In this document: positions 7,406 to 10,485 of the stretch, one piece after another
How the letters are laid out: each line of letters starts with the position of its first letter
Position numbering within the stretch: position 1 is the stretch's first letter
DNA from: Candidatus Omnitrophota bacterium
GTDB taxonomy: Bacteria; Omnitrophota; Gorgyraeia; Gygaellales; Profunditerraquicolaceae
DNA: 64,000 nucleotides
Direction: 5' to 3'
Assembly (NCBI GenBank): GCA_017992455.1
Contig: JAGOOP010000002.1
Span: forward strand, 80,912-144,911
Notes under the pieces: model-generated
What the model was told of the DNA's origin: nothing
What the model saw: only the letters and a program-made list of their open reading frames with translations
Database searches by the model: none
Position numbers and translations under genes: made by a program

Positions 7406-8517
7406 CGTCCCTTTTTGTAAAATTTCCTCACCGTTGAGATAACATAGTCGACTTCCGCGTCGGTCAACTCCGTATTCATGGGCAAAGAACAGACCTCTCT
7501 GCTGATGGCTTCCGTCTCGGGAAAACCCCTGTCCGCCAGCTTCAGGCCCGGATGTTTGTAATAGGGTTTGCGGAACTGGGTCAGGACCTCAACGCCGTTC
7601 GCCTTGAGAAAGTCGGAAAACTCGCTTCCACGGTCCGAGCGAACCGTATAATTCTGATACACGTGATCAAAGCCCTTCCTGTCGTAATGCGGCAGAACCA
7701 GGCCTTTAAGATCAGACAACGACTCCCGGTAACGCTGCGCGATCTTCTTTCGTTTCAGGATCCACGCCGGAAGATGCCTGAGTTTGACATCCAGAAAAGC
7801 CGCCTGGAGATTATCAAGAAGGCACGTGAACCCATGGCCGTGATATTCGCCCGTATCCCGGTCCTCGCCGTTATAGCGCATTCGGGTCGCGAATAAAGCT
7901 ACGTCAGGATCGTTCGTGGTGATCGCGCCTCCGTCGCCGTAACCGCCCAGGATCTTAAAAGGATAGAAGCTCCAGCACCCGGCATGCCCCCAGGAGCCTG
8001 CGCGCCTGGAGTCGATGCTCGATCCCAGGCTCTGGCACGCGTCCTCGATGACCTTGAGATCGTGCTTCTGCGCGATCTTCATGATCTTGGGCATATCGGC
8101 CATATATCCGCTTAAATGCACCGGGATAATGGCCTTTGTCCGCTCTGTGACAGCTTCTTCGATCCTGTTAACGTCAATATTGAAATCCCCGGACACATCC
8201 ACGAGCACGGGGACGGCTCCCGCATTGACCACAGCCGAACACGTCGCGACGAACGTGTGTGCCGGAACGATGACCTCGTCGCCCGGGCCTATCCCAAGTG
8301 CCCGGAGCGACATATGAAGGGCGTCATACCCGCTGTTCAAACCGACGGCATATTTTGTTCCGACGAAACGGGCAAGATGGGACTCGAACGACTTCAATTG
8401 TCCCCGGTCGATCAAATCTCCTTTGGACATGACATCGCGGTATGCGGCATCGATTTCCTTTCTGATCGACCGGTAATTTGCGGCTGGATCCACAAACCGC
8501 ACCCTGTATGTTTTCAT
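7402..8517 (-). CDS. DegT/DnrJ/EryC1/StrS-family sugar aminotransferase
   Basis: 371 aa. Contains LNSGYDALHMSLRALGIGPGDEVIVPAHTF and SFYPFKILGGYGDGGAITTND. ATGA overlaps on both sides. Confidence 0.9.
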   Translation of the reverse strand: MKTYRVRFVDPAANYRSIRKEIDAAYRDVMSKGDLIDRGQLKSFESHLARFVGTKYAVGLNSGYDALHMSLRALGIGPGDEVIVPAHTFVATCSAVVNAGAVPVLVDVSGDFNIDVNRIEEAVTERTKAIIPVHLSGYMADMPKIMKIAQKHDLKVIEDACQSLGSSIDSRRAGSWGHAGCWSFYPFKILGGYGDGGAITTNDPDVALFATRMRYNGEDRDTGEYHGHGFTCLLDNLQAAFLDVKLRHLPAWILKRKKIAQRYRESLSDLKGLVLPHYDRKGFDHVYQNYTVRSDRGSEFSDFLKANGVEVLTQFRKPYYKHPGLKLADRGFPETEAISREVCSLPMNTELTDAEVDYVISTVRKFYKKGR

Positions 8518-9509
8518 CGAATTCCTTTCCGCACCATCTGTTTCGCCTTCCGTACAATATGATCAGCGGCCGGGAAATAGACCTTTTCAAGAGTCCTGCT
8601 CGCCGGCGCAGGAACGTCCGGCAAAGCGATACGCCGGATGCCCGACACGAGCCCGCCGGGCAGGCGCTCAGAAACGCATGCCGAGATCTCTGCCGATACC
8701 CCGCAGGTCATCCAGCCGTTATCCACGACAAGAAGCCGCCGGGTCTTGCGTACCGAACGAACGACCGTCCGTATGTCCAGCGGCTTGACGCTTCGCAGAT
8801 CGATGACTTCCGCGGCGATCCCGTCTTCTTTCAGCATATCCGCAGCCGCCATCGCCTCCCCCACCATGAATGACAGGGCCGTGATCGTTATATCCCTGCC
8901 CGTCTTCTTCACCGCTGCGGCGCCGATCGGCACGCGGTACACTCCTGCAGGGATAAAACAAGAGGTATTATACAACCATCTGTCGTCAATGTAAACAACT
9001 GGATTATTATCCTCGATCGCCGATATCAGCAGCCCTTTTGCGTCATAGGCGTTCGAAGGCATGACGACCTTGAGCCCGGGGATATGCGCGAAGAGAGCGT
9101 GAAGCGCCTGGGAATGCTGCGCCGCCTGCTCTCCCCCCCTGTTCACGATAAGCCAGAAAACGACAGGCACGGGAGCGTTCCCGGCGAACATATAGTTCCA
9201 GTTCGCCGCCTCGTTAATGACCGGGTCCAGGCCGTACATGAGGAAATCCGTCCTCGGGTGCACGACAACCGGCCGCATGCCCGCGATAGCCGCTCCGACT
9301 GCGCTGCCGGTCACCGCATTCTCCGATACGGGAGTATCGATGACGCGGAGCGCGCCGTACCTGCTCAAAAGACCCTGCGTCGTATTCCCCACATACCAGG
9401 GGCTCTTCACACCCTGCCCGATGAGAAATACGTTCTCATCGCGTGCCATCATCAGGTCAAGGGCCTCATTGATGGCAAGGCTGAACGGCAGAATCCGGTC
9501 ATTCATCAT
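8514..9509 (-). CDS. ThDP-dependent 2-oxoacid dehydrogenase E1 component, beta subunit-like (transketolase C-terminal fold)
   Basis: 331 aa. Contains VFLIGQGV, RVIDTPVSENAVTGSAVGAAIAGMRPVV and EVIDLRSVKPLD. Confidence 0.85.
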   Translation of the reverse strand: MMNDRILPFSLAINEALDLMMARDENVFLIGQGVKSPWYVGNTTQGLLSRYGALRVIDTPVSENAVTGSAVGAAIAGMRPVVVHPRTDFLMYGLDPVINEAANWNYMFAGNAPVPVVFWLIVNRGGEQAAQHSQALHALFAHIPGLKVVMPSNAYDAKGLLISAIEDNNPVVYIDDRWLYNTSCFIPAGVYRVPIGAAAVKKTGRDITITALSFMVGEAMAAADMLKEDGIAAEVIDLRSVKPLDIRTVVRSVRKTRRLLVVDNGWMTCGVSAEISACVSERLPGGLVSGIRRIALPDVPAPASRTLEKVYFPAADHIVRKAKQMVRKGIR

Positions 9510-10485
9510 AAACGTGCTTTCTGAGCGTACGGGGCCCGGGGAAGGAGCTCGTCAATGCGAGTGCATGCGCTCGGGCGATCTCATTCATAACCCCCGATTC
9601 CAGCCCGGCAACGGCTTTTTCGCTCAACACACCGCTACCCGTCAGATACCGCCTCAAAAACAACACCGGGTCCTTCCTGCGCCACCGCTCGATCTCGGCG
9701 GGCGGACGGATATCGGTGTGAGCCCCCTGTACGTTATCATCGGGCCCCACATGTCCGTGCATGCGGTATGTCAGGAACTCCAGGAATACGGGACCCCGGC
9801 CGCTGCGGCACAACGATACTGCCTTCTTTGCCTTCGCCAGCACGGTAAATATGTTATTTCCGTCTGCCTGCCACGCCCTGGCCCCGAACGGACGGGCGAT
9901 TTTATAGATATCCTTTGAAACGCGGCACTCGCGTATCGGCATGTGCGTTGAATAAAGATTGTTCTCGCACACAAATATGACCGGCAGCCGTTTGAGAGCC
10001 GCAAGGTTCAGAGATTCGTACAAAACGCCTTCACCCGCCGCGCCGTCTCCGAAAAAGCTGACCGCGACACCGCTTTTACGGGCGATTTTCATCGCAAGGC
10101 CCGCTCCCACCGCAAGGGATATGGTGCCGGCGACAATGGGCGCGGACCCGAGCATGCCGGCTGATACATCCCGGAGATGCATGGAGCCGCCGCGCCCGCC
10201 CGCGCATCCGTCCCGGCGGCAATAGACCTCGGCTACGAGCTTGTTCAGATCCCCGCCTTTTGCGAGATAATGGCCGTGCGAACGGTGATTCCCGAATATA
10301 AGGTCATGCCTGGAAAGCGCGGCACACACTCCCACCGCGACAGCTTCCTGCCCCGTGCATAAATGCACGGGGCATCTGATGATGCCGCGCATGATGGGAC
10401 CGATAAAGCTTTCCTCGCATACGCGGATCCTGAACATGCTGCGGTACAGGCCCGCCGCATCCCTGTTTGACAAAATACGCTTCAT
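9499..10485 (-). CDS. ThDP-dependent 2-oxoacid dehydrogenase E1 component, alpha subunit-like
   Basis: 328 aa. Contains [30 protein letters not shown], the ThDP-binding GDGAAGEG...N motif and [13 protein letters not shown]. Confidence 0.85.
   Translation of the reverse strand: [328 protein letters not shown]

Follow-up and report, generated by a model that had tools for sequence, protein, structure and literature searches.

Pairs of proteins related to the alpha and beta chains of E1 from the 2-oxo-acid dehydrogenases, which depend on thiamine diphosphate (ThDP), are a recognised class of sugar-branching enzymes. For AlmDI/DII this role is backed by knockout and feeding experiments, and KbDH-alpha/beta of the kibdelomycin pathway ligates pyruvate to ketones (ketone analogues) in vitro (PMC12247030). 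C-branching has also been proposed for AviB1/B2, Pau11/12 and EvdU5/EvdS3. In the paulomycin pathway, Pau11/12 add an acetyl branch at C4 and the aldo-keto reductase (AKR) Pau7 reduces the ketone of this branch (PMC4753412). Branch ketones can be reduced, methylated, oxidised or, as in kibdelomycin, transaminated; in a review from 2025, the branched sugars of lipopolysaccharide (LPS) are assigned to YerE-type enzymes, which are acetolactate-synthase-like, and the E1-type enzymes, with about 120 clusters, to secondary metabolites (PMC12247030). Here we describe an E1 alpha/beta gene pair (9499-10485 and 8514-9509) in a surface-glycan locus of a Candidatus Omnitrophota bacterium. The DNA analysed is a stretch of 64,000 nucleotides (contig JAGOOP010000002.1, positions 80,912 to 144,911), which we call the window and number from its first letter.

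We suggest that this pair is an E2-independent ThDP carboligase of the AviB1/B2 ("alpha-KADH2") type that C-branches a nucleotide keto-sugar, and from the sequences compared here we regard this as probable. Our confidence is lower for pyruvate as the donor, for amination of the branch and for the order of the steps. The enzyme type and its chemistry would have a precedent in antibiotic pathways. What appears to be new, within the literature that we reached, is the UDP-N-acetylhexosamine (UDP-HexNAc) substrate, the PglC-primed surface glycan, the spread in uncultured phyla and the predicted amino-octose. The setting of the module would be new because such enzymes have been described for secondary metabolites and not for LPS-type loci. 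In literature searches that did not take in the survey underlying the approximately 120 E1-type clusters, we met no relevant report of O-antigen clusters with an E1 pair or of an LPS sugar with a 1-aminoethyl branch.

An E1 pair without E2 and E3

The E1 alpha-type ThDP-binding subunit (9499-10485, minus strand, 328 aa) matches PF00676 E1_dh with 208 bits. The E1 beta-type subunit (8514-9509, minus strand, 331 aa) matches Transket_pyr with 115 bits and Transketolase_C with 122 bits. Since both open reading frames (ORFs) are long and the profile matches are very strong, the genes are genuine and cannot be a chance result. They overlap each other by 11 nt (9499-9509). An ATGA overlap at 10482-10485 joins the stop of a PglC-like transferase gene to the start of E1 alpha, and a second one at 8514-8517 couples E1 beta to a DegT-family aminotransferase gene. 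Residues 146-176 of E1 alpha form a ThDP motif of the GDG...NN type, 31 residues in length. A preliminary description of the window had pointed out the mutual overlap, the two ATGA junctions and the ThDP motif, and all of these stand.

The closest solved structure of the pair is human pyruvate dehydrogenase (PDH) E1, and the best profile matches are also PDH E1 alpha and beta. The core features of a 2-oxo-acid dehydrogenase E1 are present, namely the heterotetramer-type alpha and beta subunits, the ThDP motif, and the catalytic Glu and His of beta. E62 and H132 of E1 beta align with E59beta and H128beta of the Geobacillus stearothermophilus enzyme, and E1 alpha keeps the histidine of its HGH motif (H245). 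Because beta-E62, beta-H132, alpha-H245 and the ThDP motif are all retained, formation of the hydroxyethyl-ThDP enamine should persist.

Judged from the sequences, the pair appears to be without a means of passing this enamine to a lipoyl-E2. As queries we used genuine E2 proteins (lipoyl, E3_binding and 2-oxoacid_dh domains) and E3 proteins that are encoded downstream of more distant E1 pairs. No E2 or E3 was found with them in the window (best tblastn E = 0.09), and there is no lipoyl or 2-oxoacid_dh (acyltransferase) domain among its annotated ORFs, in agreement with the earlier statement that neither component is visible in the window. In addition, E2 is near the E1 pair at none of 37 non-redundant related loci. 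Twelve more distant E1 pairs from the same genome scan have E2 directly downstream, and one of them also has E3.

The residue for docking of E2 is lost as well. In human E1 beta, D289 (D319 of the precursor) makes the key salt bridge to the subunit-binding domain of E2, and its change from D to N raises the E1-E2 KD more than 100-fold (PMC5554223). Alignment with human and G. stearothermophilus E1 beta places this residue in an L-[D/E]-A-P motif, where it equals E285 of G. stearothermophilus. The column is occupied by Asp in 9 of 10 E2-linked relatives. The window has V288, and Lys is found in 19 of the 22 members of its PglC-linked clade and in 33 of 39 other stand-alone pairs, with Arg or Leu in pairs from Streptomyces. 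A second acidic position, three residues upstream of this column, is lost too. The preliminary description had proposed looking for the loss of docking residues, and Val288, where E2-linked relatives have Asp, is such a loss.

Phylogeny and conserved neighbourhood

A neighbour-joining tree of concatenated E1 alpha and E1 beta (80 taxa, 646 columns, 100 bootstraps) places the window pair in a clade of 14 leaves with 100% bootstrap. This clade is nested in a 22-leaf clade of PglC/DegT-linked pairs (93%), and every E2-linked pair falls in a separate clade (100%). A further stand-alone clade consists of three Streptomyces pairs, which are 43-46% identical to the window pair. They are encoded in antibiotic deoxysugar clusters, beside genes for an EryCIII-type glycosyltransferase, a 4,6-dehydratase, a nucleoside diphosphate (NDP)-hexose 2,3-dehydratase and a glucose-1-phosphate nucleotidyltransferase.

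Scores were also obtained with the curated PDH models of NCBIfam. With TIGR03182 (alpha, cutoff 393.85) and NF006667 (beta, cutoff 321), the window pair scores 278.5 and 317, both below the cutoff. The corresponding scores are 285 and 293 for a Streptomyces cluster pair, 266 and 267 for a stand-alone pair from Pelagibacter, and 387-399 and 366-380 for the E2-linked controls. The contrary outcome raised in the preliminary description, nesting among housekeeping E1 enzymes of PDH or branched-chain 2-oxo-acid dehydrogenase (BCKDH), is not what we find, with the pair outside the E2-linked clade and below the PDH cutoffs.

A clade-contrast scan gave residues that are common to all stand-alone clades, including the Streptomyces pairs, and differ from the E2-linked pairs. 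In beta, R86 replaces a Phe that equals F82beta of the G. stearothermophilus E1, which belongs to the hydrophobic nest around the catalytic H128beta (PMC2663715), and R177 replaces Lys. In alpha, C94 replaces Tyr and E152 replaces Gln. Lys or Arg at beta-288 is also counted among these signatures, the window itself having Val288.

Six other E1 pairs (L073, L070, L069, L078, L075 and L083) lie inside the otherwise E2-linked clade and have no strong E2 match in the available DNA. The docking column has Lys or Arg, not Asp, in four of the six. Coupling to E2 may have been lost more than once.

Relatives of the window's E1 alpha are widespread. A protein search gave at least 120 cluster representatives with 57-72% identity, all of which are generically annotated as PDH or acetoin E1, and relatives with 60-72% identity are found in many phyla. 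Few carry source names, among them Actinobacteria, Omnitrophica, Nitrospirota, Deltaproteobacteria, Desantisbacteria and Trichlorobacter. Neighbourhoods were collected from three hits directly, from 80 loci of species-representative genomes and from 22 metagenome loci; after removal of near-duplicates, 37 loci belong to the window's clade. The preliminary description had called for a survey of how often the neighbours recur, and they do so across phyla. A PglC-like transferase is present at 24 of the 37 loci, DegT at 27 and a PglF-like dehydratase at 19. An AKR is found at four; 31 loci have DegT or AKR, and none has both. A class I/II aminotransferase and a methyltransferase homologous to that of the window occur at 13 loci each. 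Where the flanks are long (at least 3 kb upstream and at least 4 kb downstream; 12 of the 37 loci), PglC is present in 10 loci, DegT or AKR in all 12, and PglF in seven.

Two of these loci can be compared gene by gene. Another Omnitrophota locus (L002) has a gene order identical to that of the window. In the cultured Trichlorobacter ammonificans (L001), the order is methyltransferase, PglC, AKR, E1 alpha, E1 beta and PglF, with no aminotransferase within 21 kb. The methyltransferase of this AKR-type locus is not orthologous to that of the window.

The survey also uncovered a second, different module of stand-alone E1 pairs. Their identity to the window's E1 alpha is 37-46%, no E2 is close to them, and the docking column is mostly Lys (L019, L020, L026, L028 from Pelagibacter, L034, L038, L053, L054 and L081; also L030, L037, L041, L044, L058 and L079). 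In the two annotated loci (L028 and L041), the E1 pair follows a fusion of an HldE-like sugar kinase and a nucleotidyltransferase of about 516 aa, and ORFs of similar size are upstream of the E1 pair in several others. In many of these loci the E1 pair is followed by two tandem DegT genes, and short-chain dehydrogenase/reductase-type dehydratases, a UDP-sugar dehydrogenase and a NUDIX protein are nearby.

Proposed pathway and alternative readings

The operon has the order phosphoglycosyl transferase, E1 alpha, E1 beta, DegT, class I/II aminotransferase, methyltransferase and PglF, with overlaps of 4-11 nt. By coordinates, the overlaps are 4 nt between DegT and the class I/II aminotransferase (7402-7405) and between the methyltransferase and PglF (5446-5449). 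All genes are on the minus strand. The first encodes a small monotopic PglC-like phosphoglycosyl transferase (10482-11072, 196 aa; PF02397 Bac_transf 196 bits), which scores 96 bits with PglC (8G1N) and 98 bits with WbaP. The last encodes a membrane-anchored PglF/WbpM-type UDP-N-acetylglucosamine (UDP-GlcNAc) 4,6-dehydratase (3596-5449, 617 aa; Polysacc_synt_2 382 bits and CoA_binding_3), whose best solved match is C. jejuni PglF (5BJU, 284 bits). Between them are the DegT-family sugar aminotransferase (7402-8517, 371 aa; PF01041 331 bits), with its pyridoxal phosphate (PLP) lysine in SFYPFK, and a class I/II aminotransferase of the kynurenine / glutamine-transaminase-K / YbdL-like type (6227-7405, 392 aa; PF00155 Aminotran_1_2 230 bits), with its PLP lysine in SISK. 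The S-adenosylmethionine (SAM)-dependent methyltransferase has an ORF of at most 307 aa (5446-6369; Methyltransf_11 75 bits). This maximal ORF shares 143 nt with the preceding aminotransferase gene, and translation therefore probably starts at 6267 (ATG) or 6234 (TTG).

The preliminary description had likened these genes to a bacillosamine-type PglF/PglE/PglC set in which a class I/II aminotransferase and a methyltransferase are found and the PglD-type acetyltransferase is missing. The two additional enzymes are there, and no PglD-type enzyme was detected: the annotated ORFs of the window contain no Hexapep domain, and tblastn with one hexapeptide transferase query found none. GNAT domains in the window occur far from the E1 module (28275-29930 and 43720-44625). 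The comparison is apt for PglF and PglC, which match their Campylobacter counterparts with the 284 and 96 bits given above, and fails for DegT. The closest solved structures to DegT are 7B0D (279 bits), DesV (2OGA, 259 bits), QdtB (241 bits) and WbpE (220 bits), and it is remote from PglE (1O61, 97 bits) and PseC (2FN6, 100 bits). By these scores, DegT is not a PglE-type 4-aminotransferase and is closest to the 3-aminotransferases DesV, QdtB and WbpE.

We propose the following pathway. The PglF-type dehydratase would convert UDP-GlcNAc to UDP-2-acetamido-2,6-dideoxy-hexos-4-ulose (UDP-4-keto-6-deoxy-HexNAc). The E1 pair would take up a 2-oxo acid, for which pyruvate is the most likely candidate, and decarboxylate it with release of CO2. 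The resulting hydroxyethyl-ThDP enamine would add to the C4 carbonyl to give a 4-C-acetyl tertiary alcohol (UDP-4-C-acetyl-6-deoxy-HexNAc). Because C4 would be quaternary once the C-C bond has formed, the acetyl C=O would be the sole remaining carbonyl. DegT most likely acts on this branch carbonyl and not on C4, since it alternates with AKR in the sister loci and is remote from PglE; the product of its transamination would carry a 4-C-(1-aminoethyl) group. In the sister loci with AKR, the 4-C-(1-hydroxyethyl) analogue would be formed instead. The methyltransferase would methylate the sugar, and the PglC-like transferase would load the finished sugar of eight carbons, as its phosphate, on undecaprenyl phosphate, where it would become the reducing-end residue of an O-antigen-type unit. 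This unit would be extended by the family 2 glycosyltransferase (GT2) that adjoins the module (11124-12173), flipped by Wzx (23975-25468) and ligated by the product of 2380-3615. What we infer in this scheme is which acceptor and donor are used, where the branch is placed, on what DegT and the methyltransferase act, and what is contributed by the class I/II aminotransferase.

The last of these enzymes has kynurenine aminotransferase (KAT) III, KAT I and YbdL as its closest solved structures. In the related loci it is replaced by enzymes of non-orthologous subfamilies (27-71% identity) or is absent, and thus it is accessory. Our guess is that it might form pyruvate and glutamate from alanine and 2-oxoglutarate, which would feed the E1 pair and DegT.

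More tentatively than for the C-branching itself, we hypothesize that this large clade of E2-independent E1 pairs, which spans many phyla, corresponds in LPS and O-antigens to the AviB-type enzymes of antibiotic pathways. For the priming, reducing-end residue of surface polysaccharides it may make a class of sugar so far undescribed in glycans, UDP-2-acetamido-2,6-dideoxy-4-C-(1-aminoethyl)hexose, which may be methylated, or the corresponding 1-hydroxyethyl sugar. At loci with the class I/II aminotransferase, both the branch carbons and the nitrogen may come from alanine. The preliminary description had offered two outcomes for a stand-alone pair, AviB1/B2-like C-branching or an unusually acylated amino-sugar. 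The former gains support from the clade, the docking loss, the neighbourhood and the precedent; the latter is disfavoured, with neither an acyltransferase nor E2 in the module and no amine at the AKR-type loci.

Several points weigh against C-branching by this route. The catalytic His that protonates lipoamide in PDH is still present, so the active site alone would leave a lipoyl acceptor possible. The Streptomyces pairs are proxies for AviB1/B2, Pau11/12 and KbDH, chosen by their deoxysugar-cluster neighbours. In the tree, which is neighbour-joining only, the deep nodes that join the stand-alone clades have less than 50% bootstrap, too little to support common ancestry with the antibiotic enzymes. 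PglF is present at just 19 of the 37 loci, or seven of the 12 whose flanks are long, and some relatives may therefore use another dehydratase. The action of DegT on an exocyclic ketone beside a quaternary carbon would follow from its alternation with AKR and from the kibdelomycin precedent. Finally, the class I/II aminotransferase and the methyltransferase are left without an assigned step.

One alternative keeps the carboligase and changes the donor, though we think it unlikely. The class I/II aminotransferase would turn an amino acid such as Met, Gln or Asp into a 2-oxo acid other than pyruvate, and the branch would be a longer or functionalised acyl group, as for ErwE and MygE. The KAT/YbdL-like enzyme is translationally coupled in the module, an aminotransferase of class I/II type is present at 13 of the 37 loci, and YerE-family relatives in LPS pathways use functionalised 2-oxo acids of C4-C8 (PMC9306805). 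However, the E1-type branching enzymes appear to have specialised in C2 branches, with KbDH confined to pyruvate (PMC12247030). In the E1 tree, moreover, loci that have the aminotransferase are mixed with loci that lack it, and these aminotransferases are non-orthologous (27-71% identity), which argues against a co-evolved donor specificity.

Less likely still is a non-oxidative 2-oxo-acid decarboxylase, similar to the pyruvate-decarboxylase-like E1 of carp. The aldehyde would become a small amine or alcohol and later a substituent of the glycan, and DegT, PglF and PglC would separately make a free-amine 4-amino sugar of the AATGal type. PglF and DegT with a small phosphoglycosyl transferase and no acetyltransferase are the layout for AATGal-type priming sugars, which counts in its favour. 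Decarboxylase activity is possible for E2-free E1 pairs (PMC5554223), and the pairing of E1 with an aminotransferase or a reductase would also fit the conversion of an aldehyde to an amine or an alcohol. However, the conserved module has no ligase, transferase or kinase to attach the small molecule, and DegT is remote from the PglE- and PseC-type 4-aminotransferases. The AKR-type loci lack an aminotransferase and still keep the E1 pair, PglF and PglC, and the signature residues are held in common with the E1 pairs of deoxysugar clusters.

It is very improbable that the pair is a conventional dehydrogenase E1 whose E2 and E3 partners are encoded elsewhere in the genome, and which might, for example, supply acyl-CoA for N-acylation in the stead of PglD. 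Such an E1 would account for the best profile and structure matches being PDH E1 and for the catalytic histidines being kept, and the window is just 64 kb of the genome. Against it, E2 is at none of the 37 related loci, the docking Asp is replaced, the pair is outside the E2-linked clade and its score with the alpha model is about 100 bits under the E2-linked controls. Further, the module contains no acyltransferase to use the acyl-CoA, and the AKR-type loci have no amine to acylate.

The remaining candidates can be dismissed briefly. Context, docking residue, tree and curated score cutoffs led us to reject a housekeeping PDH, BCKDH or acetoin E1; supply of an N-acyl donor to replace PglD was rejected for the lack of acyltransferase and E2 in the module and for the AKR-type loci without an amine. 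A phosphonate (2-aminoethylphosphonate) route by a ThDP decarboxylase and an aminotransferase was dropped, the fold being that of E1 and not of phosphonopyruvate decarboxylase and no further conserved gene, such as one for a phosphoenolpyruvate mutase, being found with the module, as was a shewanellose-type branch, which is joined via CH2 (aldol-type) and not via an acyl carbon.

The glycan locus and comparison with known systems

The E1 module is part of a single very large glycan locus on the minus strand that spans positions 780 to about 60860. Directly downstream of PglF, in the same operon, is an O-antigen ligase/polymerase-like membrane protein (Wzy_C; 2380-3615, minus strand; PF04932 71.5 bits), whose gene shares 20 nt with the end of the PglF gene. 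A DUF4254 ORF (1868-2626) overlaps this upstream Wzy_C ORF by 247 nt. Because of this overlap and the position of its domain match (residues 184-243), translation of the DUF4254 ORF probably begins well downstream of 2626. One side of the locus is bounded by genes for tyrosyl-tRNA synthetase (61550-62716) and ribosomal protein S1 (62841-63989). Its opposite end adjoins LPS-core genes, with a heptosyltransferase of glycosyltransferase family 9 at 780-1880, and thus the host is a diderm with LPS.

Besides the E1 module, the locus apparently encodes two pathways of the pseudaminic/legionaminic type. Two genes for NeuB, the nonulosonic-acid synthase, are on the minus strand at 38593-39705 and 50210-51058, and three CMP-type cytidylyltransferases are near them (36846-37592, 51063-51764 and a fusion at 31234-32982). 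The stretch from 36846 to 51764 also has a soluble PseB-type dehydratase (46477-47454) and a DegT (45317-46597), together with a PIG-L deacetylase, GNAT, WbqC, GFO/IDH/MocA oxidoreductases and aminotransferases of class III and class IV. The locus contains at least nine methyltransferase domains, including a methyltransferase-GT2 fusion (17598-19010) and a methyltransferase of 610 aa (41229-43061). In addition, two enzymes are of the radical SAM/SPASM type, a further radical SAM enzyme is B12-binding (32985-34394), and one SPASM protein stands alone. Such tailoring genes lie at 13321-19010, 14024-15106, 32985-35523 and 47513-48340, and this dense set suggests heavy C- or O-methylation of the sugars.

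Base composition varies along the locus. Over 12 kb, from 24000 to 36000, G+C is 0.45-0.49, compared with 0.53-0.59 in the flanks. This region covers Wzx, several ORFs of no family (25432-28278), the GNAT fusion, a DegT and radical SAM genes, and its composition suggests a mosaic or horizontally exchanged serotype-specific core. An ORF of 627 aa (53885-55768, minus strand) with a papain-family Peptidase_C1 domain and a weak LAGLIDADG-like domain stands between GDP-sugar genes and is atypical for a glycan locus. The G+C of this patch is 0.45 against about 0.55.

The C-branched sugars of LPS have hitherto been credited to YerE-type enzymes, and the E1-type enzymes have been catalogued in actinomycete antibiotic clusters. 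If our proposal is correct, E1-type branching extends to the primary cell-surface glycans of many uncultured phyla, those concerned being Omnitrophota, Nitrospirota, Desulfobacterota/Geobacterales, Bacteroidales, Verrucomicrobiota, Saccharibacteria and Calditrichota. A new cationic amino sugar of eight carbons would then be predicted at the base of the O-antigen, which would bear on the biology of zwitterionic polysaccharides and on the substrate range of PglC-type transferases. Such pairs would also offer a compact and soluble type of ThDP carboligase by which chiral tertiary alcohols are formed on nucleotide sugars. For annotation, the names "pyruvate dehydrogenase E1" and "acetoin oxidoreductase", which these genes now bear, would misstate metabolism in genome-scale models of these organisms.

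With the E1 enzymes of PDH, BCKDH and acetoin dehydrogenase, the window pair has its fold and alpha2beta2 gene arrangement in common, and also the ThDP motif and the catalytic Glu and His. It differs from them in having no E2 or E3, in the loss of the docking acid, in the Arg that stands for Phe at the catalytic His and in scores below the curated cutoffs. The Campylobacter PglF/PglE/PglD/PglC set corresponds to the module at its first and last steps, the PglF-type dehydratase and the small monotopic phosphoglycosyl transferase. PglE and PglD have no counterpart in the module, where the E1 pair, the class I/II aminotransferase and the methyltransferase are found between these ends.

YerE/YerF, ErwE, MygE and MMAR_2332, of the yersiniose, erwiniose and caryophyllose pathways, resemble our proposal in chemistry, with an acyl anion from a 2-oxo acid added to a C4 ketone and subsequent reduction of the branch ketone. 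The LPS or surface-glycan setting is also shared between the YerE systems and the module. However, YerE is a single-chain flavoprotein of the acetolactate-synthase type, whereas the window has the two-subunit E1 fold, to which TPP_enzyme_C is just a sub-threshold match of 20 bits. The substrate of YerE is a CDP-4-keto-3,6-dideoxyhexose, and the one proposed here is a UDP-6-deoxy-HexNAc. Thus the module, as proposed, works like YerE and is outside the YerE family.

We liken the pair to AviB1/AviB2, Pau11/Pau12, AlmDI/DII, EvdU5/EvdS3 and KbDH, which are, as in the window, stand-alone E1 pairs without E2 or E3 beside an NDP-sugar 4,6-dehydratase. In these systems an enzyme that tailors the branch ketone adjoins the pair (an AKR for paulomycin, a transaminase for kibdelomycin), and the DegT of the window and the DegT or AKR of the sister loci mirror this. 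The pairs from Streptomyces deoxysugar clusters share the signature residues and the sub-threshold PDH scores with the window pair, yet form a separate clade. The setting is also different. The antibiotic systems have a TDP-deoxysugar and a natural-product glycosyltransferase, whereas the window has a predicted UDP-HexNAc substrate and a PglC-type priming transferase in a surface-glycan/O-antigen locus. Unlike the actinomycete antibiotic clusters, the clade of the window is spread over many, mostly uncultured, phyla.

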